This document shows positions 1 to 64,000 of a DNA stretch of 64,000 bases, one piece after another (the stretch's first letter is position 1; each line of letters opens with the position of its first letter). A program made the position numbers and the translations under genes. The notes under the pieces are model-generated. The model was not told the DNA's origin, searched no databases, and was given only the letters and a program-made list of their open reading frames with translations. Source of the DNA: a virus (taxonomy: Duplodnaviria; Caudoviricetes); the IMG/VR virus record IMGVR_UViG_3300024275_000002, positions 982-64,981 of that record; one strand, 5' to 3'.

Positions 1-539
1 ACGCGGTCCCAAATGACTTGTGTATGTACGTCAAATAGATCCTTCATCTCCGACAGCATGGCTATCGATTCAGCCGCTTCGCGCGTGCAGCTGGCGGGCA
101 CTTTGTTCAGCACGGCGAGCACAGGCGTGTCCTTACCTTCAGCCCGCAGTTGGGTAATCAGCTTGCCCATCGTGCCGAGCGACCATGTGTCAAACTGACC
201 AGTGGTCACAGGCATGACTATCACGTCGGCCGCAGACGCAGCCCCACGGGTCTCCAGCCCGTCGTCACCCGGGCAGTCCACAATGACTGCATCCCATAGC
301 TTCGCCTCGGCGACCAGATCCTTGTAGATCTTGCCGGACAGATGGGCACGCGCAATGGAAGGCTCGATGCCCGACTCTGCGCGTGTCTGCACCCATGTAT
401 CGGCGCTCTTATTGACAGGATCAGTGTCGATCAGCTTGACGTTGAACCCGCTGCACGCATGTCTAGCCGCTAGGTTCGTCGATATGGTCGACTTGCCAAC
501 CCCACCTTTGCCATTCACTACAGCCACAATTACGCCCAT
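1..539 (-). CDS. parA: ParA/MinD-family partition ATPase (short type), C-terminus runs off the window edge
   Basis: Not in ORF track; manual translation from ATG at 539 gives MGVIVAVVNGKGGVGKSTISTNLAA (deviant Walker A KGGVGKST), LIDTDP and VIVDCPG (Walker B); RBS GGAGGG upstream. Confidence 0.92.
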   Translation of the reverse strand, partial: MGVIVAVVNGKGGVGKSTISTNLAARHACSGFNVKLIDTDPVNKSADTWVQTRAESGIEPSIARAHLSGKIYKDLVAEAKLWDAVIVDCPGDDGLETRGAASAADVIVMPVTTGQFDTWSLGTMGKLITQLRAEGKDTPVLAVLNKVPASCTREAAESIAMLSEMKDLFDVHTQVIWDR

Positions 540-569: not shown

Positions 570-660
570 GTCAGTATAGCACACGATAACTACAGGTGTA
601 ACTAGACGTGTATGTACGTCATAGATACGTCTGTATGTATCGATATGTCTGAGTATATAT
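570..660 (-). promoter_or_regulatory. parA promoter with repeat-rich tract
   Basis: Minus strand reads TGC-TATACT (extended -10); TGTAACTAG box at 597-604 overlaps the -35 position; GACGT-N6-ACGTC dyad 605-620; GTATGT-like repeats to about 660. Confidence 0.5.
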
Positions 661-3095: not shown

Positions 3096-6059
3096 TCAGT
3101 GCATCGTGAAATTGCCTTGGGTGGATGCCGGCTTCGACGGCGCGCCCACGAGCTGCAGGTCCGCGTCGAGCTTGCGGTTATCGATCAGCCAGCAGCGCGT
3201 CTGGCCAGTGCGATACACGGTGTCCGCGCCGAGCACCTTCTGCGCCGCGCGCTTCACGAGAATGCCGGACTCCTCCAGCTGCTTCTCGATCGTGCGGAAC
3301 GCGATGCGGTTCTCGGCGCAATACTTGAGCATGGCGCTGCGCGAGATGTACGTGAGGCCCACGTCGTCCTCCTTGCGCACCTCCATCTCGTCGAGCGGCT
3401 TCTGCACCACGTTGTCGATGTTCGAGCTGGACTTGGCCGACAGGATCAGCGTGTTGCGCAGCTTCGAGTCCAGGAACTGCGCGAGCAGTTCGGCCGGCGT
3501 CGTGCCCGACTCGCGGATCGTCAGGCGCTGGCTCACGAGCAGCTGCACCATCCACTGCAGGTCGTCCTCGAACGGGAAGTCGAGCAGCCCCAGCTCGGCG
3601 CAGATCTGCGCGGCCGTGTAGCAGGCGGCGACGGCCGCCGACCAGTAGCGTTCGGCCGATGCGTTCGACGATGACAGCAGGCGATCGATCTTCTCGACGT
3701 TCTCGATGAAGCGGTCGCGCACCTTGGCGTAGTGCTTGGCGACGTACTGCGCGAACAGCGGGCCGGCGAGCCCGTGGTGCTCGTTCAGCTCGCGCAGGAA
3801 CTGGTCGGCCGCCAGCTTCGCCTCCACGCCCGTGTCGACAAGGCGGAAGTCCACGGAGATGAGACGCATCAGGTGCGGGTCGAGATCCTTGCCTGTGGCC
3901 ATCATCGCGGAGATCGTGTCGGCGTTCGTCGTCATCGCGCCCATGGTGGCCCACGTGTCGAACCGCGAGGACATGATGCCGTCGTGCTGCAGCCGGCGCT
4001 TGCCTTCGCCCTGCGTGAAGTTCAGCAGGAACTTGCGCAGATCCTCGTTCTCGCGCTCGGTCACGTCGTCGATCAGGAACGGCAGCGAGTGCACGCAGCC
4101 CAGCGCCGAGTACAGCGCGTTGATCGTCGCGCCGTCCTTGTTGCCGTTCACCAGCAGCGACATCGGGTGCCCCCACACGCTGCTCATCGCCTTCAGGCAG
4201 GAGGTCTTGCCACGGCCGCTCGCGCCGCTCGCGCAGAACAGCACGCCGTTGTTGCCGGTGTCGTTCATGTGGAACAGGATCGAGCCGAACGAGTGGTAGA
4301 GGAACATGCGGTGCCCCTCGTAGCCCGGCCGGTTATAGAACGACATCGCGCGCTTCCAGCCCCCGAGCGTGCCGGTCGGCTTGAGCTTGCCCTTGGTGAC
4401 GTTCGCGACCGCATCGCTGGGCGAATGCGCCACTACTGTCCCGTCTTGATGCACGACACGATCGCCGAGCACGAACACCTTGTGCTCATCGTGCCACCCG
4501 AGGCGTTCGTACAGCTTCTCGCGCCCGGCCTCGCGGGCGAGCTTCTGCAAGTAGGCGGTCATATAGAGCTGCGTCATTTTGGATTGGTCCCCGCCGAGCA
4601 CGATGCCCTTCGAGAACAGGAGCTTGGCCAGACCCTTCGGGTCAGCCAGCAGGCCGAGCGGCACCGCGAAGTCACGCGGCTCCGGCGGTGCGCCCTTCTT
4701 CAGCGGCAGGTACACCCGCCACATGCTGCGCTCATCGATCTCCTGATCGATGCCGTTCTGCGCGCGGATCGCGAGCGGAAACAGATCGTAGGGGCACACG
4801 ACCTGCTGGCGCGGCCGGCCCTCGTTGTCCTCGGTCTCGATGATGACCGCGCCATCCTTGCGGCGCTTGTAGCCGGCCGGCGGCTCGGGCAGCGTGATCT
4901 CGGTTGGCGCGGCCGGCGCGTCGTCGCTGTTCGGCATCTCGTCGTTCTCGATCGCGACGCTGGGGGCCAGGATCTTCGGCGCGGGTACCGCCTCCACGTG
5001 GCGGCCGAGCTGGGCCGGCGACGTGAGCTTCGTCCAGTGCGGGCATGCTTCGCACACCGAACTATTCAGGGCGTGAAAATGATCGCATCGGGTCGGACCA
5101 GCGTGCCAGTTATTGATCTTCTCGACCATCGCGTTCGTGCTGAAGTCCGCGTGCCGATCGGACACGGACAGGCCCGCGAGCGTGCGCGGTTCGCAGAACT
5201 TGACGATGCCCAGCGACGCGCGCCACAGGGGCTCGCTGGCGCGGCTCCCATGCGTGGCGACCATCGCGCCGAGCTGGCCGCACGAAAAGACGATCCGGTC
5301 GAAATTCAGCGGATCGTTCGTGGTGCCGATGTTGTCCATGCCCTCCCACACGCCCGTGGCGGGCCTGCTGCCACCGAGGATGAGCGTAGGTGCCACCGAT
5401 GGCACGCGTGCCCCGTGGTCGGCCGCGTAGTCGGTCACGCGGTGGGAGAAGTCGACGAAGCTGACCACGCCGGCATCGCGGAGCACGCTTACGGGCGCAT
5501 TACGTCGGACGTTATAGCTGCCCGGCACCCGCAGCACGCGGGCCTGATCGGCCGGGACAGCCATGTCGGTGCGGAACCCCTCGGCCACGCAGATCGCCTT
5601 CAGGCGGTCGGCCACCGGCCGCCACTCGGCGACGGGCACCGCGATCGCCAGCGCCCAGTACGCGTGAATGCCGCCGCCTGAGTCGACCAGCATCGGCTGC
5701 GGCAGGCCGACCTTCTTGTAGAACGCCTTCAGCTCGCGCACCGCGTCGCGCTTGCTGGGAAACTTCTTCGGGTCAGTCGGGTCGACGTCGAGGTCCAGAT
5801 AGAAAGACCGCATGAACGCGACGTTGGCTTGCGTGCGCGTGCGGTACTTCTGCTTCTCGGCGTCCCAGTAGCGCGCCTCTTTGTACGTGCCCAATGCAAC
5901 GTACGCCGGCTTGCCCTCGAAGGTCAGGTGGTTGACGTGCGCGAGTGCGCTGTCGATGGTGGTGTGCGCGCGGTTGAACCAGCCACGCTCGGCGGGCGTG
6001 GCGATGAAGATGGTCCCCGAAGGAGCCAATACCTTTTCGAGGAATTCCCGCGTTGTCAT
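3096..6059 (-). CDS. Primase-helicase fusion (N-terminal AEP/RepB-like primase, C-terminal DUF927-type P-loop domain)
   Basis: YLDLDVD and SGGGIHAYW primase motifs; Cys/His cluster CDHF..C..CPH; Walker A GASGRGKT; likely start MTTREFL at 6059. Confidence 0.85.
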   Translation of the reverse strand: MTTREFLEKVLAPSGTIFIATPAERGWFNRAHTTIDSALAHVNHLTFEGKPAYVALGTYKEARYWDAEKQKYRTRTQANVAFMRSFYLDLDVDPTDPKKFPSKRDAVRELKAFYKKVGLPQPMLVDSGGGIHAYWALAIAVPVAEWRPVADRLKAICVAEGFRTDMAVPADQARVLRVPGSYNVRRNAPVSVLRDAGVVSFVDFSHRVTDYAADHGARVPSVAPTLILGGSRPATGVWEGMDNIGTTNDPLNFDRIVFSCGQLGAMVATHGSRASEPLWRASLGIVKFCEPRTLAGLSVSDRHADFSTNAMVEKINNWHAGPTRCDHFHALNSSVCEACPHWTKLTSPAQLGRHVEAVPAPKILAPSVAIENDEMPNSDDAPAAPTEITLPEPPAGYKRRKDGAVIIETEDNEGRPRQQVVCPYDLFPLAIRAQNGIDQEIDERSMWRVYLPLKKGAPPEPRDFAVPLGLLADPKGLAKLLFSKGIVLGGDQSKMTQLYMTAYLQKLAREAGREKLYERLGWHDEHKVFVLGDRVVHQDGTVVAHSPSDAVANVTKGKLKPTGTLGGWKRAMSFYNRPGYEGHRMFLYHSFGSILFHMNDTGNNGVLFCASGASGRGKTSCLKAMSSVWGHPMSLLVNGNKDGATINALYSALGCVHSLPFLIDDVTERENEDLRKFLLNFTQGEGKRRLQHDGIMSSRFDTWATMGAMTTNADTISAMMATGKDLDPHLMRLISVDFRLVDTGVEAKLAADQFLRELNEHHGLAGPLFAQYVAKHYAKVRDRFIENVEKIDRLLSSSNASAERYWSAAVAACYTAAQICAELGLLDFPFEDDLQWMVQLLVSQRLTIRESGTTPAELLAQFLDSKLRNTLILSAKSSSNIDNVVQKPLDEMEVRKEDDVGLTYISRSAMLKYCAENRIAFRTIEKQLEESGILVKRAAQKVLGADTVYRTGQTRCWLIDNRKLDADLQLVGAPSKPASTQGNFTMH

Positions 6060-6079
6060 GTGAGCCCCGTCAGGGTGGG

Positions 6080-6433
6080 TCAGGCGGCGATCGGCTTGGG
6101 CTGCGGCTTGTGCGTGCGCACCACGCGCTGCATTGCCTTGCATCGTTCTTTCACGGTGCCGGCAAGCGGCAGATCCTTGGCACGCTTAGCCTTGCGAAGG
6201 ATCGTGATGAGGCGCTTGATCTTGATGATCTTGTCAGCGTCGCGCGGGCGCGCTTCGCCGTACATCCAGCGATAGATCGTCACGTCTGAGACGCTGAGCA
6301 GTTCAGCGACGACCTCGACCGGTACGTTGCCGTCGATGATGAGTTCCGCCAGCGTCGGACCCAGGGCGTCGGGGTCGGCGATGCGCGCCTCGGCGATTTG
6401 CTTGAGCCGGGCGTCCGTCAAGATGCGAGTCAT
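6080..6433 (-). CDS. HTH DNA-binding protein (Cro/XRE-like)
   Basis: VEVVAELLSVSDVTIYRWMYG helix-turn-helix. Confidence 0.75.
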   Translation of the reverse strand: MTRILTDARLKQIAEARIADPDALGPTLAELIIDGNVPVEVVAELLSVSDVTIYRWMYGEARPRDADKIIKIKRLITILRKAKRAKDLPLAGTVKERCKAMQRVVRTHKPQPKPIAA

Positions 6434-8770: not shown

Positions 8771-8800
8771 TGTAACTAATATGCTCGCAATCCTAACTAA
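8771..8800 (-). promoter_or_regulatory. TGTAACTAA box in the intergenic region upstream of the 8747 operon
   Basis: Exact TGTAACTAA 8771-8779 plus CCTAACTAA at 8792. Confidence 0.6.
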
Positions 8801-8835: not shown

Positions 8836-10446
8836 TTACGCTGCGATCCTCACTTGCGCGAGGTCGAGCCCCAGCTCTCGTTTGTACAGATCCAGCATCG
8901 ATTCCTGCGTGATGCGCCGCCCTTCCACCATTGCGTAGATCTCTTGCTCGAAGCGGTTCGCCGCGATCCGGGCGATCGTCATCTTGCGCTTCTGGCCGGG
9001 GCGGTTGATGCGGTCCATCACCTGCATGCTCTGGTCGTTCGAATAGATCGGCGCGTAGAACACCACCATGTCCGCGTCGGTCAGTGTCAAGCCGTGCGCC
9101 ATCACCTTCGGGTGACACACTGCCTCGGTCAGCGACGCGTCATTGCGGAAGTCATGCCAGATCTTGTCGCGCTTGGTCTGGCTCACGTCGCCGTTCACCA
9201 CCTCCACGCGCCGGCCGTCACCTCGCAAGTTGTGCCAGATCCGCAGCTCCTCGGCCAGCGCCCGCGCGATGCCCTTGAACGGTACGATAATCAGCACCTT
9301 CGAACTCGACTGCTCGATCAGCTCCTGCAGCACGCGCAGGCGCGGCTTGTGGTCGATCGTGATGTACGTGCCGTCCTCGCGCTTCACCGCACCGCAGAGG
9401 ATCTGGCGCAGCTTGATGATCTTGATGGCCGCGTTCGCAGCCGTGATCTTCTCGCCCTGCGCCTCGGCCACGAGGTGATTTTTCATGGCCAGATAGGTGC
9501 GGCCCTGCTCCACCGACAGTTCGGTCGACCGGTTTAGGAACGTGACGGGCGGTAGCTGCAGGCAGTCGGCTTTCTTGAACCGGATCGCAGGCTGCAGCGC
9601 GTTGTACGCCAGCTCGTTGCTGCCCGGGCGCGGCACCCACTTGTGCTGACTGACCTGATACATCGTCTCGCGACGCCACTGGCTGAAGAACTTCGGCACC
9701 CGCGACTTGTCGACGAGGCGCGCCAGCGCCCATGCGTCGGTCGGTGCGGTCGGGCACGGCGCACCCGAGAGCATCCACAGCTTACGGCCCTGCGTGATCT
9801 GTTCCAGGATCTCGTACTGCTCGGTCTGGCCGTTGCGGTAGTCGCTGCACTCGTCGACGATCACCACGTCGATGTCCTTGCGCGCGAGCAGATCCTTCTT
9901 CAGCACCTTCAGGCCGGCCGGGTTGATGATGTAGAAGTCCGCCGGCTTCGACAGGCGGTCGCGGCGGCGCTCGGCGTCAGCATGCAGGATCATGCCGGTG
10001 CGGTGCATGCACACGGAGAAGATCTCCTGCAGCCACGTGTCCTTCAGCGTCGACAGCGGGGCCACGATCAGCGCGCGCTTGATCTTGCCGAGGCGCATCA
10101 AGTAGTCGGCCGCCCACAGCACGCACGCCGTCTTGCTGGTGCCCATCTCGTTGAGCACGAAGCAGCGCGAGTGCAGCGTGAGGAAATCCGCCGTCGCGTA
10201 CTGGTGGTCGAACACGCTCTCGAAGCGGGCGGGCCGGGGCCAGTCGTAGTAATAGCGGATCGGGCTCGGTGCCTTGATGCCCATGTTGCGCAGCACCTTC
10301 ACCACCGCGAGGTTATGCGGCACGGCGATGTTGTGCCCGTCATAGTCGAGCAGCTTGTGGTGCGACGGGAAAATGCCCATCAGCTGCGCGAGCGTCTTGG
10401 GGCGCACCTTCAGCACCAGACTCTTACTTGGCTTGTGGACGATCAT
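8836..10446 (-). CDS. SNF2/DEAD-like SF2 helicase
   Basis: EMGTSKT (motif I), VIVDECS (II), LSGAP (III), HGLTL and QVMDRINRPGQ (V/VI). Confidence 0.9.
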   Translation of the reverse strand: MIVHKPSKSLVLKVRPKTLAQLMGIFPSHHKLLDYDGHNIAVPHNLAVVKVLRNMGIKAPSPIRYYYDWPRPARFESVFDHQYATADFLTLHSRCFVLNEMGTSKTACVLWAADYLMRLGKIKRALIVAPLSTLKDTWLQEIFSVCMHRTGMILHADAERRRDRLSKPADFYIINPAGLKVLKKDLLARKDIDVVIVDECSDYRNGQTEQYEILEQITQGRKLWMLSGAPCPTAPTDAWALARLVDKSRVPKFFSQWRRETMYQVSQHKWVPRPGSNELAYNALQPAIRFKKADCLQLPPVTFLNRSTELSVEQGRTYLAMKNHLVAEAQGEKITAANAAIKIIKLRQILCGAVKREDGTYITIDHKPRLRVLQELIEQSSSKVLIIVPFKGIARALAEELRIWHNLRGDGRRVEVVNGDVSQTKRDKIWHDFRNDASLTEAVCHPKVMAHGLTLTDADMVVFYAPIYSNDQSMQVMDRINRPGQKRKMTIARIAANRFEQEIYAMVEGRRITQESMLDLYKRELGLDLAQVRIAA

Positions 10447-12694: not shown

Positions 12695-14602
12695 TCAGTG
12701 CTTCGCAAGACCATAACGCCTGTGCATGCCACCCTCGCTATTCAGCGGCAAGTCAGGTGCCCACACGGGCGGAATCTTCATCTTCGCCATCAGGCGCTCG
12801 AACGCCCACGGTGCCTCAAACTCATGTGCAACAAAGACACCTTCGTCGTGCACGCTGTGCACCCACCACACCGGGCGGCCCTTCGCTTCCTGAGCAAACG
12901 ACAGGCACTGGCCGAGCACGATCAGGCGAGCCAGCGCCTGCACGATGTTCTCGACCATCTTCGCGCCGTAGATCTTCTCGCGCGACTTGCCGTTCCAGAA
13001 CGTCCACTCCATGTATCCGGTCTCGGGGTCTTTCTCCCGCTTCAGCTCCGGGTACAGGATCTTCAGGCCGCCGGGCAGTACGATGCCGTCCACACACGTC
13101 TTAACTACTCCACGGTAATCCACGTTCACGCCAACCTGTCCACGCGCGATGCACGCGAGTGCTTGGTTGCAGCGGTCCCACAGCGCCGTCACGCGCTTGT
13201 GCGAGTTGCGGTAAATCTTGCACACCTCCTCGCACAGCTTCATCTCCAGCACCAGCGGCTTGCCGTCCTTGCCCTTCGCCTCGCGGCGCACCGAGACTTG
13301 GAACATCAGCGCGCCCTGCCCGAAGCCGAACGCCAGCTTCACGCGCTTGCCCATCTGCCGCTCGTCCGGGTCGAGCGCCTTGTCGATCGGCCGGCCGTAG
13401 ATCTTCTCGGCCATGATGCAGTAGATGTCCGGCCCCTCGCCACGGTCGTAGCGCCGGTACGCCTCGATCATGTCCTCCTGGCCGGCGAGCCAGTCGAGCA
13501 CGCGCGCCTCGATGTTGGAGCTGTCGCCCACCACGATCGCGTAGCCCAGCTCAGCCATCAACGCATCGCGCAGCTTGCTGCCGCGCTTGAGCGCCTGCCA
13601 GTTGATGCTGTCGCCTGCCGACAGCCGGTGCGTGCCGCTCGCGCCGCTGTACTTCAGGTAGATCGTGGCGAGCCCGCGCCGCGACATGGCGATCAACCGC
13701 TCGGCACCCTTCTCCGCGATCGTCGTCTTGTTCTTCAGCCGGGCCTCGACCAGCACCTGCACGCGGAAGTCCGGATGCTCCTGCAGCTTCTGCATCGCCT
13801 CGTCCGTCTTGGCGAACGCATACGTCAGCGGCGCGATCGGCTCGCGCTCGGCCGGCGGCTTCTTCAACCACGTCGGACTGATCTTCATCGGCGGGTCGAC
13901 CCCCAGCGCCTTGAGCGCCGTGGCGAACCGCTCGTTGCTCATCAGGTCGTCCTTCGAGACGCCAGCCTCCAGCATGAGGCGTTGCTTTTCTTCCCGCAAG
14001 TCGGCCGCATAGTCACTGAGCATCTGCGCATCCAGCTGCACGTGCGGCTCGGTGAACATGCGGATGATCTGGTCGTTCAGCTGCAGCTCCGACTTGCTGA
14101 AGTGCGGGGCCATGCGCATGAACAGCTCGTACGTCAGGTCGACGTCGTTGCAGCTGTAGCGGCCGTACTGCGCGAGCCGTGCCGGCCCGAAGTCCGCGTA
14201 GTGCATGCCACGCACCTTCAGCACTTCGTCGCCCTTCTTGCCGATGCCGTACCGCTCGGCCAGCTTGTCGAGCGACAGCCTGCCGTTCGCACCATGGAGC
14301 GCCCGCGCCATGCCCAGCGTATCGAGCCAAAGGCGCGGGAAAATTCCGTAGTGGTACGAAGTAATGAGCCCGTCAAAATGGGCGTGGTGGCACAGCACGG
14401 CCTTCGATTCCAGCTTCAGCGACTTCAGATGCTTGCCGATCTCCGGCCGGGGCACCCAGTACGTGCGCTCGTTATTCACACGCACGCTCACCAGGATCGC
14501 CTCGAAGCGCGGGTCACGGACGTACGCTTCCGTCGTCATCGACGACAGCGTGTAGCCGTCGCCGTAGAACGTCTCGTAGTCCAGCACGACCAGATCCATC
14601 AT
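12695..14602 (-). CDS. polA: Family A DNA polymerase with N-terminal 3'-5' exonuclease
   Basis: LDYET and HHAHFD exonuclease motifs; DSSNIEAR (A), KRVKLAFGFG (B), VHDE (C). Confidence 0.93.
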   Translation of the reverse strand: MMDLVVLDYETFYGDGYTLSSMTTEAYVRDPRFEAILVSVRVNNERTYWVPRPEIGKHLKSLKLESKAVLCHHAHFDGLITSYHYGIFPRLWLDTLGMARALHGANGRLSLDKLAERYGIGKKGDEVLKVRGMHYADFGPARLAQYGRYSCNDVDLTYELFMRMAPHFSKSELQLNDQIIRMFTEPHVQLDAQMLSDYAADLREEKQRLMLEAGVSKDDLMSNERFATALKALGVDPPMKISPTWLKKPPAEREPIAPLTYAFAKTDEAMQKLQEHPDFRVQVLVEARLKNKTTIAEKGAERLIAMSRRGLATIYLKYSGASGTHRLSAGDSINWQALKRGSKLRDALMAELGYAIVVGDSSNIEARVLDWLAGQEDMIEAYRRYDRGEGPDIYCIMAEKIYGRPIDKALDPDERQMGKRVKLAFGFGQGALMFQVSVRREAKGKDGKPLVLEMKLCEEVCKIYRNSHKRVTALWDRCNQALACIARGQVGVNVDYRGVVKTCVDGIVLPGGLKILYPELKREKDPETGYMEWTFWNGKSREKIYGAKMVENIVQALARLIVLGQCLSFAQEAKGRPVWWVHSVHDEGVFVAHEFEAPWAFERLMAKMKIPPVWAPDLPLNSEGGMHRRYGLAKH

Positions 14603-18408: not shown

Positions 18409-18437
18409 GCGTTAATTCTATCATCAGTTGTAACTAA
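18409..18437 (-). promoter_or_regulatory. Promoter with extended -10 and TTAGTTACA box
   Basis: Minus strand TTAGTTACA-ACTGATGA-TAGAAT. Confidence 0.6.
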
Positions 18438-26477: not shown

Positions 26478-26777
26478 TCACTCCGCTTCGTTGTCGCGTG
26501 CTAGGCAGTGATCCAGATACGCGCCGTTGATTGCCCGGGCGATCTGCGCCCGCGTCGCGCCCGCCATCACGCGTGCTTCGAACAGGTAGATCGTGGCGTC
26601 GCCGTACTTCTGGTCGCGTTGCCACAGCACCCCTGCTGCCGCTACCGCGATCTCGCTGCGCTGCCACTCGAACCCGGACACGTGGCGTCCGACGAACGCC
26701 ACCACGTACACCTGCGCATGCAGCTTGCCGCCCGCTACGTCCAGCGGCGGCAGGTGCACAACTTCTCGCTCTTTCAT
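26478..26777 (-). CDS. Small early protein
   Basis: Leader motif. Confidence 0.6.
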   Translation of the reverse strand: MKEREVVHLPPLDVAGGKLHAQVYVVAFVGRHVSGFEWQRSEIAVAAAGVLWQRDQKYGDATIYLFEARVMAGATRAQIARAINGAYLDHCLARDNEAE

Positions 26778-26837
26778 GGTCCTTCTCCTTCTAGCCAGTT
26801 AGGCGGACAAACACAGCTCCGCATCGGTATGTCCGGG

Positions 26838-27086
26838 TCAGTACGCCTCGACCGTGCAGTTCTCGATCTGCATGCCGTTCGGCGACACGCCCGGATCGAT
26901 CAGCATCTGCACGCATGCTGCCACATCGATCGATCCACCCGGCTTCAGCAGCTCGCGCGCTTCCGCCTTCGGCATGCCCCGGCAGAACTCCTCGTCGCGC
27001 ATCGCCACGGCCATCGCTGCCTTGTACAGCGCGCGCTTGTCGTGCACCGTCACATCGAACATGACGTTGAATGCTTTCGTTTTCAT
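26838..27086 (-). CDS. Small early protein
   Basis: Leader motif then MKTKAFNV. Confidence 0.65.
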   Translation of the reverse strand: MKTKAFNVMFDVTVHDKRALYKAAMAVAMRDEEFCRGMPKAEARELLKPGGSIDVAACVQMLIDPGVSPNGMQIENCTVEAY

Positions 27087-27159
27087 GGTCCTTCTCCTTC
27101 GCCTTCTGGCAAGTGGGCCGGACAAGCCGATACGAGCATCGGTCTGTCCGGCGAGTGAA

Positions 27160-27231
27160 TGTAACTAATCGCTTCGAAGTCCTTAGTTACATCAGCTTCT
27201 ATTATCGCCCCGGACACTGGGGTTATGTCAA
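27160..27231 (-). promoter_or_regulatory. Early sigma70-like promoter with downstream inverted operator pair
   Basis: Minus strand TTGACA (27231-27226)-N19-GATAAT (27206-27201); TGTAACTAA-N14-TTAGTTACA at 27160-27191. Confidence 0.65.
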
Positions 27232-27863: not shown

Positions 27864-28379
27864 TCACCGATACTTACCGAATATCGCTACCACATCCTCC
27901 CGATTGGTTCGATTGACCATCGTCAAACGTGCCACATTGCGTTTCACCCACCGGGCCGCATCTGCCCGTGACATATCGGTTTCACCAGTAGATTTTACGA
28001 GTCCCTTTGCGGCAGCACGGAATACCGTTTCGATCGCGACCGGCTGATTATTGCGAACGATTGGCATTTCCATCCAGTCCGTGACCAGCAGGATGCGCGT
28101 GCCGCTGCGCACCACACCGAACCCGGCGTCACCCGGCCGGGACGCTCGGCCGTTGCGGATAGTTACAGGGTACGTGTACGTCTCGATCGTTACTTTGGGT
28201 GCCGGGCACGCACGGCAATGCGTGATCTTCCCAGCCTGCAAGTAGTCTCCACGGGCCACGTAGGCTCTCCCGCACGAACAGGCACACTCCCAAAGGCCGT
28301 GACCATGTCCATCATTGCCTACAAACCGTGACACTCGCAGCTCGCCGAACGTGGCACCCGTCAGGTCGCGCTTACGCAT
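27864..28379 (-). CDS. Protein with homing-endonuclease-associated Zn-binding N-terminus
   Basis: DLTGATFGELRV...WECACSCG...G.ITHCRAC. Confidence 0.65.
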   Translation of the reverse strand: MRKRDLTGATFGELRVSRFVGNDGHGHGLWECACSCGRAYVARGDYLQAGKITHCRACPAPKVTIETYTYPVTIRNGRASRPGDAGFGVVRSGTRILLVTDWMEMPIVRNNQPVAIETVFRAAAKGLVKSTGETDMSRADAARWVKRNVARLTMVNRTNREDVVAIFGKYR

Positions 28380-28389
28380 AGTCACACTC

Positions 28390-29220
28390 TCTTAGTTACA
28401 CATTGCGGGGGATTTCGAGACTAGCACGAACGTCGATTTTGGCGAGGGGTTGCGGGCCAGCTTTCGTATCTGGTGCAACTATGGGTGCAAGTAAGGGTTT
28501 CCGAGCCTTGCTGGAGGCGGCTCTAATCAAATAAGCAGAAAAAGCTGGTTTTTCGAGAGGGGGGGTCCATTTGAGGGAAATGTCATTTTTTGGAGGCGAT
28601 GTTTGGCGGGCATAGTTACTGATCGTGAAACTAAGATGAGTAACTAACGATGCGGGATAGAAACGAAAGGGAATGGAACTAACCGCACATCGCCTCCATT
28701 CCGTGACGTTTTTGATTTTCGCGTAGGGTCTATTTTTTAACTGCTTTTTTGGTTTACTAGCTTATTGATTAACTATAAAAAGAAAGAAGCCTTGCTGGAT
28801 AAGGGTTTGCGGCCGGTGATGCAATAAGCTGGGACTAAGCTGAACTATCATTGCGTCGGCCGCTCAGCCATGCTGGATAAGGCTCGCCGCGAATAAGCTG
28901 GAATTAGTTACATGCAACTAAGCGGCGAAACGCGTAACTATCCACGTTAGTTACAGTCGCCCGGACAATCGCAGGTCGTATCGGCTTGTCCGCCCCTGTT
29001 AGTTACATTCAGCGCGGGCCAGTCCTTTCAGGCGTCTGACCCTAATTGCAGAACGCTTGGGCGCGGGCCGGCCTGTGCGGCGCTGATCGCGCTGCGAGCC
29101 CCTAGCAGCCCCGTGGTGGGCTTGGCGGGGCTCGCCCGTACCTGTGAGCCATGCGCGCGGCGCGGCGCCTGCTAGGGGCGAAAAAAAGCCCCGCACGCGG
29201 CGGGGCTGAAACGGGGCGGG
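28390..29220. other. AT-richer non-coding control or terminus region with repeats
   Basis: No credible ORF; multiple TTAGTTACA boxes; GCC(T/A)TGCTGGA(TAAGG) at 28505, 28789, 28867. Confidence 0.6.
29181..29207 (-). terminator. Rho-independent terminator
   Basis: Minus strand AGCCCCG-CCGCGTG-CGGGGCT-TTTTTT. Confidence 0.8.
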
Positions 29221-29226
29221 TTGTAA

Positions 29227-29883
29227 CTATGCGGCTTTGCGCGGCTGATGGACGGCGCGATATTGATTCGCGATGGTCGTGAGCGTCATGGCGGGGAGTT
29301 TGTCCGCATCGCCATTGTTCGCGAGCAGGATTTTCGCAATGTGATCCAGCGCCGCATCCACGCCGATCGTCGCGACAATCTGTTCAAAAGCCTGTTCGAT
29401 CGTCACGTCGCGCGACGGCGTTCCGGCCGGCCGCCCCAGCGGCTTCTCTGTCTTGTGCTCGCCTTTCTTCGCGTTCGGCCGCACCAAGCCCGCATCAATC
29501 AGGGTTTGGCGCTTCTCTGCCTTTGCTGCTGCGCGCCGTTCGGCCCGCTTGACGCTTTCCGGATCGGTCGAGCGCGGCAGGTCGCCAAACTTGGCTTTCA
29601 ACGCTTGCCCGTACACCTGAACGTAATATTCGGCGGACTTGCCGCGCTCGCCTGCCAGCACTTTCAACGCTTCCCGATCTGCGCTCGCCTCCGCGAACGT
29701 CGGAATCACGGAATACTGCGATTCGATCATGCTGCGTACCGCGTCGCGTGCGGTTGCCTGTGCATCGATTGCCGCACACAGGCTGCTGTGCCATTCGAGA
29801 ATCGTCACTTTCTTGTCGTCCACGATCACCACGCGCGAGCCCGGCACCGTAACGGGTGCATTGGTTTGATTACGCTTTGCCAT
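29227..29883 (-). CDS. Basic/helical hypothetical protein, first gene of the early strand
   Basis: RBS AAGG; MAKRNQT; KPLGRPAG. Confidence 0.6.
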   Translation of the reverse strand: MAKRNQTNAPVTVPGSRVVIVDDKKVTILEWHSSLCAAIDAQATARDAVRSMIESQYSVIPTFAEASADREALKVLAGERGKSAEYYVQVYGQALKAKFGDLPRSTDPESVKRAERRAAAKAEKRQTLIDAGLVRPNAKKGEHKTEKPLGRPAGTPSRDVTIEQAFEQIVATIGVDAALDHIAKILLANNGDADKLPAMTLTTIANQYRAVHQPRKAA

Positions 29884-30343
29884 GTCGTTCACCTTTTGAT
29901 CAGTTGTCCTAGCCGGTTGGTTAGGAGATCCCAGTATCGCGCGGTGCGGGCCGATTGCAGCCGCGCGGCAGAGCACGTAAAGCGGCTCAAAACGCCTGAA
30001 ATGCGCGGCAAGGCGCTGCACAGGGGCGCAAAGTAATTCTTTTTCTGGCCGGCCGGGGGCCAAGGGGGGCGAAAGGAGGGTGACGGGCATCCCGTCGACC
30101 CGTTTCCCATAGAGAATTTCAGCTCAAAAGGTCTTAGTTACACTCCCCGCAACTAACCGTCCGCCGGAAAAATTTCAGCCAGAAAAACCACTTAGTTACA
30201 TCCAGCCGCCCTGCCCCCTTGGCCAGCAGAAAAGTGGCCGCTCGTGGCCGCTCGTGGCCGGAGCTGGCCGTTCGCTTGACATCGCCCCGCGCTTCTGGCC
30301 GCTCCCGGAAACCCTCACCTTTCCCGTGCTGATCCGATTCGCC

Positions 30344-61831: not shown

Positions 61832-62392
61832 ATGGCCCTGATCTTCGAGAAGTTCTTCCCGTACATCGTCGCGGCGCTGGTGGGCACCGGGCTCGGCATG
61901 TGGGTGCGTGGCGTCGACGCCGACCGCGTGCTCGCGCGCGAGAAGGCTGACCATGCCGCCGACGTCAAGACGTACCGCGACCAGATCGCCGCAATGAACG
62001 CCGCCGCAGATAGCGCGTTCCAGAAAGCCGTGGCGGACCACCAAGCGCAGGAAGGGAAAATCGCGTCCCTCGATGCGCAGTACACCGAGGAGAAGAACCG
62101 CCATGAAGCCGACAATGCCCGTTACGCTCGCGCTCTCGCTGCTGGTACTGAGCGCCTGCGTGTGCAGGTCTCCCACTGCTCCGTCAGTGGTAGTGGCAAA
62201 GCAGCCGGAGCTGCCAGCGCCGCCCGCGTGGACGATGGAGAAACCGCCTACGCAGACATCGCTCCAGCGGCTGCAGAGCGCGTTGTCCGGGTCGCCACTG
62301 ACGACCAGCACGAAATCGACAAACTGACCGCGCTGCAGGCGTACGTGTGCACGCTCAAGCCGGATCTCCCGGCGTGCGCGGCTGGTCAGTAA
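61832..62392 (+). CDS. Rz-like inner-membrane spanin
   Basis: N-terminal TM, coiled coil, ERLRVQVSHC, KLTALQAYV. Confidence 0.85.
   Translation: MALIFEKFFPYIVAALVGTGLGMWVRGVDADRVLAREKADHAADVKTYRDQIAAMNAAADSAFQKAVADHQAQEGKIASLDAQYTEEKNRHEADNARYARALAAGTERLRVQVSHCSVSGSGKAAGAASAARVDDGETAYADIAPAAAERVVRVATDDQHEIDKLTALQAYVCTLKPDLPACAAGQ
62103..62327 (+). CDS. Rz1-like outer-membrane lipoprotein spanin, embedded in Rz
   Basis: Lipobox LVLSAC then Pro-rich PELPAPPAW. Confidence 0.75.
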   Translation: MKPTMPVTLALSLLVLSACVCRSPTAPSVVVAKQPELPAPPAWTMEKPPTQTSLQRLQSALSGSPLTTSTKSTN

Positions 62393-62741
62393 GCGTCCAC
62401 ATATCCTGCGGGAACCCGGGCCTCGGCAGGTAGCCGCGCCGTTCGAGTGTCCCCCGCACGATCGGATTCTGGATCGACTGGACGTAGACGTAGGTGCAGC
62501 CGAGTTTGGCTGCCGCGATCTCAACGGCGTGCAGCGTTGCCGAGAACACGCCATAGCCCCGGCAGTCCTCGTTCACCGTGATGTCGGCCAGATCCAGCGC
62601 GTAGCCGGCCTCATTGCCCAAGTAGCGCACCGAGCGGCGCACGTAGAGCCTCCCCTTCCCCTGCAGGTCGATGTGGGCGTTACGCCGGCCGAACACCGCG
62701 ATCACGATGTCGTCGGCCAAAGACTTCGAATCAATCATCAC
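62355..62741 (-). CDS. GNAT-like acetyltransferase
   Basis: ADITVNEDCRGYGVF (motif A-like RGxG), YVQSIQNP...LERRGY. Confidence 0.6.
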   Translation of the reverse strand: MMIDSKSLADDIVIAVFGRRNAHIDLQGKGRLYVRRSVRYLGNEAGYALDLADITVNEDCRGYGVFSATLHAVEIAAAKLGCTYVYVQSIQNPIVRGTLERRGYLPRPGFPQDMWTLTDQPRTPGDPA

Positions 62742-63007
62742 TCACGCTCTGCTCGCAGCTGCACCGGCATGAACGTGTCGTCGTCGATCTGCTCGCGCAC
62801 GCAGCCGCCGGCCGGCATCTCACGTGGCGCGTCGATGCAATACTCAGCGTCGTAGGCTGCCGTGTGGAGGAGCCAGCGGTGCGGGCGCACGTCGCCGTAC
62901 TGCGTCATGATGCGGCCGGCCATCTCGATCATCATCCACGCGCTGAGCGAGAACGATGGGCTATGGATGTCATCGGCGATCCAGCGGTATGTGCTCATAG
63001 GGATCAC
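62738..63007 (-). CDS. Hypothetical protein
   Basis: Coupled overlaps. Confidence 0.45.
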   Translation of the reverse strand: MIPMSTYRWIADDIHSPSFSLSAWMMIEMAGRIMTQYGDVRPHRWLLHTAAYDAEYCIDAPREMPAGGCVREQIDDDTFMPVQLRAERE

Positions 63008-63228
63008 TTTGGTGAGATTTCAACGCGCAGGCGGTAGCCGAACACGTCCAGCAGGTCGCGCATCACCGCGAAGGTGATTGTCTGCCTGCCGTTCTCGATG
63101 TTCGTCACGGAGGTACGTGACAGCCCGACGAATTCGCCCAGCTGGGCCTGAGTGTAGCCGTGCGCCAAGCGCAGCTCGCGGATGAACGCCCCGAGATCGC
63201 CGGGGTTCATGGTTTCACGGCGCTTCAT
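63004..63228 (-). CDS. XRE-family HTH regulator
   Basis: IRELRLAHGYTQAQLGEFVGLSRTSVTNIENG. Confidence 0.9.
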   Translation of the reverse strand: MKRRETMNPGDLGAFIRELRLAHGYTQAQLGEFVGLSRTSVTNIENGRQTITFAVMRDLLDVFGYRLRVEISPK

Positions 63229-63470
63229 TTTTTGACTGGGTACCCGATGCCGACGATCTTTTGGCCGCGTGCTGCCGCGTCGCGCTCGGCCTTCGCAACG
63301 TCAACGGCCGCTCGTTTTTGGAGGATGTCGAATTGCTCCCGAGCGATCTTTTCGGTCGGCCACTGCTTGCGTACGCGGTCGATGAATTGCTCGCGCGTGA
63401 CGCCGGACACCTCGCCGGCGAGCGACGCCATAAACAGGTCGGCGATTTCGTCGTAAATGCTCACAGCCAT
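63225..63470 (-). CDS. Hypothetical protein
   Basis: RBS GGAG; MAVSIYDE. Confidence 0.55.
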   Translation of the reverse strand: MAVSIYDEIADLFMASLAGEVSGVTREQFIDRVRKQWPTEKIAREQFDILQKRAAVDVAKAERDAAARGQKIVGIGYPVKK

Positions 63471-63694
63471 GTCTCCACAACGTGCGATGGATCGTTGTCC
63501 GACCGCGTGATGCACACCAGCCCCGGCGGCAGCTTCCGGCGCAGCTCCTCCAGCGTGGCCGCCTTGAGCACCGTGTGCGTGCGCATCGTATCGCCGCCCG
63601 CGAGGATCAGCCACATGCGCGCTACGAACAGGTTCGGGTAGTCGGCCGGGTGCTCGTAGACGGTCCACATCGCGAGGGGGTTGGCTTCGGTCAT
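63461..63694 (-). CDS. Small phage protein
   Basis: WTVYEHPADYP..FVARMW...R...DP..VVETWL. Confidence 0.7.
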   Translation of the reverse strand: MTEANPLAMWTVYEHPADYPNLFVARMWLILAGGDTMRTHTVLKAATLEELRRKLPPGLVCITRSDNDPSHVVETWL

Positions 63695-63927
63695 GGGTAG
63701 ATGCGCTCAAAGGTATCGGTTCGCCGGTACAGCTTCGCGTGCATATCGTACGCCATGTTGCCGGGGGCCAGCTCCTGATATAGCCCGAGATCGTTGCTGG
63801 CCTGTGGTTCGGAGATGCCGAAGTAGTCGCGCAGCGCGCCACGCCGGACGGTGCCGTAGTGGAACAGCAGGAAGTCGATGAGCCGAATCCGCTGTTCCAC
63901 CGCGTACGACAGATCGGGCTTGAGCAT
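63691..63927 (-). CDS. Stand-alone CapW-type winged-HTH protein (no WYL domain)
   Basis: VEQRIRLIDFLL...RR..L.DYFGISEPQASNDL..YQELAPGNM.YD...K.Y resembles the N-terminal wHTH of CapW-like WYL repressors. Confidence 0.75.
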   Translation of the reverse strand: MLKPDLSYAVEQRIRLIDFLLFHYGTVRRGALRDYFGISEPQASNDLGLYQELAPGNMAYDMHAKLYRRTDTFERIYP

Positions 63928-64000
63928 CAGTGCACCGAACCGCGAGGAGGCAGGAAGTTGGTCATGCGGCCCTCCGCGAGATCCCAGTTCATGAACTCAA

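Follow-up and report, generated by a model that had tools for sequence, protein, structure and literature searches.

The gene at positions 63691..63927 of the window (minus strand, ATG to TGA), recognised by its open reading frame (ORF), profile matches and predicted fold, encodes a 78-aa protein. This protein is a stand-alone DNA-binding head, homologous to the N-terminal winged helix-turn-helix (wHTH) domain of the CapW and BrxR regulators, and nothing else. The window is the whole stretch of phage DNA analysed here, 64,000 nucleotides long and corresponding to bases 982-64981 of a 64,981-bp virus record. As judged from the relatives identified in viral and prokaryotic genomes, head-only proteins of this kind form an old family carried by phages and prophages. 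We consider it quite possible, if short of probable, that the phage head is a signal-blind occupant of host CapW/BrxR operators and hence a transcriptional lock on defence.

WYL repressors (CapW, BrxR and their relatives) are now seen as a common switch which raises many defence systems when damage or infection is signalled by ssDNA. OrbA and Ocr are known phage counter-defences acting on defence proteins; to our knowledge, no known phage counter-defence acts on the WYL-repressor switch. No description of phage-borne head-only CapW/BrxR proteins was found in the literature searched. CapW binds, as a dimer, a palindrome overlapping the -10 box (PMC9122588), and ssDNA on its WYL domains moves the heads ~13 Å apart, freeing the DNA (PMC11662680). 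Cellular CapW and BrxR bind as domain-swapped dimers via their linker, WYL and WCX parts (PMC9122588, PMC9122589), and a DNA-bound BrxR structure is the published template for a head reading a palindrome of ~20 bp (PMC9122589, PMC9122588). The new elements presented here are the half-site of the cellular relatives, its absence from the phage and from the flanks of the short genes, an apparent remodelling of helix 1, and the exclusion of TAGTTACA, a motif of this phage, as a target of the family.

Identity and predicted fold of the 78-aa protein

The original prediction, made from the sequence alone, was that the 78-aa ORF resembles the N-terminal wHTH of CapW-like WYL repressors. This is borne out: the motif that it quoted is present and a family profile matches CapW and BrxR chains with E-values from 1.5e-19 to 2e-8. 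The protein itself has no match in Pfam (a release without the PF26109 model), PHROG, NCBIfam or PADLOC. Its ten first homologues, which are 73-85 aa long and 60-70% identical to it, all carry PF26109 as a precomputed Pfam tag. A profile built from 10 homologues and searched against solved PDB chains matches CapW 7tb5 (E 1.5e-19, residues 24-92), CapW 7tb6 (E 1.7e-17), BrxR 7qfz (E 1.8e-12), CapW 9c5g (E 1.7e-11) and BrxR 7t8k (E 2e-8), and in each of these five chains the N-terminal domain is the sole matching part.

An AlphaFold2 model derived from 52 family members has a mean pLDDT of 95.6 and includes three helices and a two-stranded wing. The predicted elements are a helix at residues 8-24, a second at 29-36, the recognition helix at 40-53 and wing strands at 58-61 and 66-69. 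With this model, Foldseek retrieves CapW and BrxR heads at TM 0.90-0.93 and rmsd 0.5-0.8 Å, again only the N-terminal winged helix being matched, and the comparison with CapW and BrxR by HMM and by structure thus came out as the original prediction had supposed. The best folds outside CapW/BrxR are weak (IclR at TM 0.58; IclR and DtxR proteins all <0.62). By these measures, the resemblance to CapW is far beyond chance. An excisionase/AlpA-type or other small phage wHTH regulator was considered and set aside, since there was no match in Pfam with a threshold of E 1 or in PHROG with a threshold of E 0.01.

Compared with CapW (PDB 7TB6 from S. maltophilia, 7TB5 from P. aeruginosa and 9C5G from R. 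leguminosarum), the phage head is homologous over its whole length, with 40-42% identity and an rmsd of 0.5 Å. The phage protein differs, however, in having no linker, WYL or WCX parts and hence neither ssDNA sensing nor a domain-swapped dimer, and its gene has neither an adjoining defence operon nor an upstream operator. Comparison with BrxR (PDB 7QFZ and 7T8K/7T8L) reveals the same head fold, at TM 0.88-0.93. In BrxR, residues 71-119 form the homodimer (PMC9122589), but beyond about residue 80 of the phage head there is no counterpart to this region, nor to the linker, WYL and WCX parts. No sequence for linker helices or a WCX domain follows the head in the 78-aa protein.

The gene and the string to which it belongs

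The wHTH gene lies in a leftward string of small genes and the translational coupling predicted at both of its ends is real. Upstream, the TGA of a 166-aa ORF (63929-63927) and the wHTH ATG (63927-63925) form a TGATG with one base in common; downstream, the wHTH TGA (63693-63691) overlaps the ATG (63694-63692) of a 77-aa ORF as ATGA. The 166-aa gene crosses the ends of the record, its 3' end being at window 63927..64000 (minus strand) and its remainder at genome 128-554. It belongs to no Pfam family, and its atlas neighbours are viral hypothetical proteins. The 77-aa gene (window 63461..63694, minus strand) contains no WYL/WCX remnant; homologues are present in three other loci with head-only genes but never adjoin the wHTH gene there. 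The distal genes of the same string (window 62355..63473, minus strand) encode an 82-aa ORF, a 74-aa XRE-type HTH protein (63004-63228, minus strand; Pfam HTH_31, E 1.4e-14), an 89-aa ORF and a 128-aa ORF that matches GNAT weakly (E 0.006). The distal end of the string, from the XRE gene onwards (62355-63228), may form a small module of toxin-antitoxin-like or accessory type. Beyond it lie the lysis genes, towards which the string is convergent. Among the phage neighbours of the wHTH gene, there are no matches to defence families in Pfam, PHROG, NCBIfam or PADLOC.

In the other direction the string extends past the window end into genome 1-1565, with the rest of the 166-aa ORF, a small ORF (genome 551-1015, same string, no family match) located after ParA, and a ParA-type ATPase (window 1-539 together with genome 858-981, minus strand, with its ATG at window 539). 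A putative promoter of the string is found at window 573..604 (minus strand). It is composed of TAGTTACAC, a 17-nt spacer and an extended -10, TGcTATACT, and is followed by a GGAGGG ribosome-binding site and the ParA ATG. This promoter presumably drives the wHTH gene; in genome 62481-64981, no terminator-like or promoter-like sites were found.

The last 127 bases of the record (window 63874..64000) are identical to its first 127 (genome 1-127), so that the genome is circular or circularly assembled. Since 127 bp is a typical length of an assembler's largest k-mer, the overlap most likely marks circular assembly and not physical terminal repeats. The first 54 nt of the wHTH gene fall within it, and the gene is present as a single copy per phage genome, a second weak match being this terminal overlap. 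The linearisation point of the record interrupts the ParA-to-GNAT gene string.

A family of head-only proteins

Other stand-alone copies occur on mobile elements, where the original prediction had suggested that they be sought. A scan of viral contigs gave 67 viral loci, in all of which the frame ends within a few codons of the head's end, and among prokaryotes, scanned with one genome for each species, 8 such short forms were found, likely in prophages. The same species scan also gave 72 proteins of 283-441 aa, most of ~300, with a head 42-61% identical. No longer relatives were obtained by word search; the full-length ones came via locus and exhaustive profile searches. A profile search of 1.84 billion cluster representatives returned 2,498 matches, of which the best 72 are all <=226 aa; in most of these the head is C-terminal or nearly so, and a protein of ~290 aa is first encountered at rank 73.

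A tail HMM made of the WYL-WCX parts of 71 long proteins was run on six-frame translations. No WYL/WCX remnant was detected in the 76 short-form loci, in the window or in genome 1-1627. The sensor is thus not encoded separately nearby, and a split gene with a separate WYL-WCX subunit is ruled out. Two further claims of the original prediction hold accordingly. The gene is complete and not a broken WYL gene, 67 of 67 viral relatives stopping alike and none of the 76 loci retaining a WYL/WCX remnant. The phage also encodes the DNA-binding part without the sensor: residue 78 is the end of the protein, there is no Pfam WYL match and the tail HMM is silent in the nearby DNA.

Across the family loci, the wHTH gene has no conserved position or partner, and none of its eight neighbours in this phage qualifies as a conserved partner gene across the short-form loci. 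ATGA ends 23 of 76 short genes, so that they are commonly coupled to the gene that follows. A tree of 130 non-identical heads, unrooted and based on an alignment of only 80 columns, has a branch (SH-aLRT 91) with all 64 short forms on one side, and the label needs one change; on this tree, a single origin of the short forms is not rejected. The dN/dS ratio of the gene relative to its relatives is 0.16-0.39, with dS saturated, and by this measure the gene is under purifying selection.

Among cultured phages, Stenotrophomonas phage Sonora alone has a homologue, a 75-aa gene within an extended series of coupled small genes that have hypothetical annotations. Complete proviruses hold two close homologues. 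Among five bacterial genomes carrying short-form prophages, the family profile detects a full-length CapW/BrxR-type gene in two and none in the other three; each of the five hosts has 1-4 WYL-domain proteins. When 120 genomes were sampled across the family to which one prophage host belongs, 15 had a full-length relative, so that possible targets exist there.

DNA-contact residues and helix 1

Mutation of R32 and of S42/Q45/S47 of S. maltophilia (Sm) CapW abolishes DNA binding (PMC9122588). These residues align with R29, S39, Q42 and S44 of the phage protein, and the recognition helices of the phage protein and Sm CapW are almost the same. Short and full-length groups alike have a near-invariant R29, and D46, Y50, N57 and Y60 are 82-100% conserved in both groups. 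The full-length group shows no variation at S39, Q42 and S44, which are 62-81% conserved among short forms and canonical in the phage protein.

The two groups differ at a set of positions on and around helix 1. Cellular heads have W at position 8 (100%), G or S at position 9, E at position 15 (95%), R at position 20 (96%), W at position 23 (100%), E or D at position 24 and D at position 31, whereas short heads have Y (84%), A (90%), R (84%), L (78%), H or Q, Y (90%) and A, respectively. The phage protein itself has Y, R, L, H and Y where CapW has W8, E15, R20, W23 and E24. The split at these positions between 8 and 31 is almost categorical. In CapW and BrxR, the head packs on the linker and on the WYL domain of the partner (PMC9122588, PMC11662680). 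We infer that the differing positions of helix 1 correspond to that packing interface, remodelled in the short family. The altered back face of helix 1 would then represent an adaptation to life without partner domains and possibly a new surface for self-association.

Operators of the full-length relatives

In the surroundings of 30 full-length relatives there are SNF2/HmaA-type helicases with NOV_C (8), CBASS parts (SMODS, patatin, E2/E1/JAB, Cap17 and HORMA), methyltransferases (RM), KAP NTPases and Wadjet JetA/B-like proteins, in agreement with published CapW/BrxR regulation of diverse defence systems. Operator sequences were counted in the 235 nt upstream of full-length genes (68 regions, loci L079-L150) and of 65 short genes. 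TATAC occurs in 49 of the 68 upstream regions of full-length genes, with the extended half-site consensus AAACTATACGCAT; the half-site known from the published E. coli CapW operator is included in this consensus. GCGTATA is found in 28 of 68 proximal upstream regions of full-length genes, compared to no GCGTATA or TATACGC (0 of 65) within 235 nt upstream of the short genes. In a Pseudomonas/Hafnia clade, the arrangement is GCGTAT-N7-ATACGC; the published site of E. coli upec-117 CapW has this arrangement, imperfectly (PMC11662680). Another clade has AACTATAC-N19-GTATAGTT around a TGTCAA. The half-site recurs in Alpha-, Beta- and Gammaproteobacteria, Planctomycetota and Acidobacteriota, where the sequences are related and the counts are not independent events. 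This recurrence suggests that the operator code of CapW/BrxR-type regulators is unusually uniform.

Search for target sites in the phage

TATAC occurs 11 times in the phage compared to 15.8 +/- 4.3 expected, and none of these copies is paired. A CapW-type operator in the phage was rejected, since GCGTAT-N7-ATACGC at up to 3 mismatches gives 21 matches compared to 29 expected; AACTATACGCAT gives 23 matches compared to 19 expected. A k-mer scan with all enriched upstream 7-mers was too noisy and was set aside. The absence of the half-site upstream of all 65 short genes implies that the short heads are not autoregulated via the family operator. If they keep the specificity of the family, their sites would lie outside the phage.

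The phage does carry an over-represented motif of its own, TAGTTACA (usually TTAGTTACA), with 13 exact copies and 35 at <=1 mismatch compared to 6.4 +/- 2.6 expected. Copies are located at window 597-604, 8771-8778, 18429-18436, 27160-27191, 28160-29229 and 30135-30200; they are oriented with transcription and cluster at 27.1-30.2 kb, where there is a divergent control region. Palindromes of 21 bp are formed by some of the copies, namely TGTAACTAA-N14-TTAGTTACA (27159-27192) and GTAACTA-N7-TAGTTAC near 28933-28955, and one copy lies within the promoter of the string that includes the wHTH gene. The motif became a candidate target because it has AACTA in common with the 5' part of the cellular operator consensus. 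There are, however, 0 copies of TAGTTACA in five other phages and proviruses with heads 61-70% identical, which does not support it as the head's own operator, and it is not enriched across the 76 short-form loci. It is probably a promoter or operator element of the phage's own.

A second repeat-rich region lies just upstream of the ParA promoter (window 595-650, minus strand), with dense ATAC/ACGT direct and inverted repeats: GATAC-N9-GTATC, GACGT-ACATAC-ACGTC, and TACATACA twice, 23 nt apart. It is located where the centromere or operator of a type Ib partition system would sit. A 12-mer of this region, GACGTACATACA, also occurs upstream of a gene for a BrxR-like protein in Dechloromonas sp. 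CZR5 (L156). The spacing of the repeats is not that of the CapW site, to which they are probably unrelated, and the 12-mer may be a coincidence.

What the head may do

As the contact residues of CapW are kept, the same kind of site is expected for the phage protein: it would read palindromes of TATAC(G)-core half-sites overlapping the promoters of defence operons. Made early, from the translationally coupled gene string, the head would occupy host CapW/BrxR-type operators once the resident repressor lets go. With linker, WYL and WCX missing, it could not be switched off by the DNA-damage or infection signal, and regulated defence (CBASS, BREX, Hma/SNF2, RM, Wadjet and others) would then stay at its basal level during infection or prophage induction. 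The head would in this way imitate in trans the CapW WYL mutants that are unable to respond. Non-cleavable LexA(Ind-) and lambda cI ind- are super-repressors on the same principle. In the unresponsive CapW mutants, there is no operon induction and CBASS protection against lambda prophage induction is strongly compromised (PMC11662680). The phage head resembles two of them, S158E and R200A, in its proposed operator binding without response to the DNA-damage signal (PMC11662680), but these are resident full-length dimers acting in cis while the head is a natural single domain proposed to act in trans.

The super-repressor of host defence operons proposed in the original prediction is in this sense plausible. 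Such occupation of host operators implies that the head binds them specifically, that its affinity suffices although the dimerising parts are missing and that the phage benefits, all of which we infer. Unless the 78-aa head self-associates, its binding may be too weak. A first lytic infection can be blocked without derepression (PMC11662680; bioRxiv 10.1101/2025.11.13.688357), so that the benefit of the lock to the phage would be conditional. That three of the five short-form prophage hosts have no detectable CapW/BrxR-type head counts against the reading, and we count in its favour that the operator of the cellular genes is present neither in the phage nor in the flanks of 65 other short genes. 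In a broader form, the signal-blind head would act as a master key for counter-defence, binding TATAC-core operators common to CapW/BrxR regulators of many phyla and holding many islands (CBASS, BREX, Hma/SNF2, RM and Wadjet) at basal level in infection or prophage induction; we regard this as possible, if doubtful.

A different, rather unlikely, view, also named as the alternative in the original prediction, is that the head is an ordinary small phage transcription factor, captured once and binding phage sites to control early and late genes, lysogeny or the ParA-led string. It is consistent with this that the gene is in a string with other DNA-binding proteins (the XRE HTH downstream and ParA upstream) and that some short-form prophage hosts have no CapW-type gene. 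The over-represented and partly palindromic TAGTTACA, with one copy in the string's own promoter and with AACTA shared with the cellular consensus, would be a candidate site. But TAGTTACA does not travel with the family, being absent from the five phages and proviruses and unenriched in the 76 loci, and an operator-like site precedes 0 of the 65 short genes. The lack of conserved position or partner is as in an accessory gene rather than a core regulator, and the recognition helix is that of a canonical CapW, yet the phage has no CapW-type site.

A head directed at the DNA of the host or of rival elements could also serve ends other than silencing of defence: displacing CapW or BrxR to trigger a costly defence in competitors, repressing other host genes with similar sites, or controlling genes of the prophage or of co-resident elements in lysogens. 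The conserved DNA-contact surface and the absence of a phage site would suit these roles, several homologues are in resident proviruses, and since CapW represses bidirectionally and BrxR loss is toxic (PMC9122588), interference could cut either way. However, a head on a site overlapping the -10 box should repress and not activate (PMC9122588), and nothing points to another target class, so we find such roles distinctly unlikely. That the gene is a decaying or truncated WYL regulator, or a chance functionless ORF, is extremely improbable. The 78-aa protein does end where the linker of the ~300-aa proteins begins, but so do the products of 67 viral and 8 genomic loci, and a WYL/WCX remnant is found in no frame. 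The position of the short forms on one side of a branch, where common descent is not rejected, their family-specific substitutions, a dN/dS well below 1, the coupling at both ends and the very confident fold (pLDDT 95.6) all speak against decay.

A widespread phage family which keeps the operator-reading head and has lost the sensor would be the simplest conceivable jam of the WYL-repressor switch, and with a conserved half-site, a single head would serve against many systems in many hosts. If the occupation of host operators is true, it would define a new anti-defence class, in which a repressor mimic locks transcription. The importance of inducible defence regulation in nature would then be explained as well, and such heads would be small portable tools for keeping defence islands silent in engineered hosts. 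If it is false, the family would still offer an unstudied example of how one domain of a host defence regulator was taken over by a phage to control genes of its own.

Further features of the phage

The replication set of the phage includes a 1015-aa DUF927 primase-helicase, an SNF2 helicase and a family-A DNA polymerase (window 3096-6143, 8836-10446 and 12695-14602, respectively), in addition to ParA. Its nearest cultured relative by TerL is Pseudomonas phage Rollin, at only 45% identity. No integrase was found among the ten large ORFs scanned, which makes a plasmid-like prophage state conceivable. A segment of 57-65 nt is present twice (window 26772-26836 and 27081-27151), the copies being 309-315 nt apart and starting with an identical 20-mer, TTTCATGGTCCTTCTCCTTC. 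On the minus strand, these segments read as a ribosome-binding site and start codon, and two neighbouring small genes thus appear to have duplicated 5' ends.
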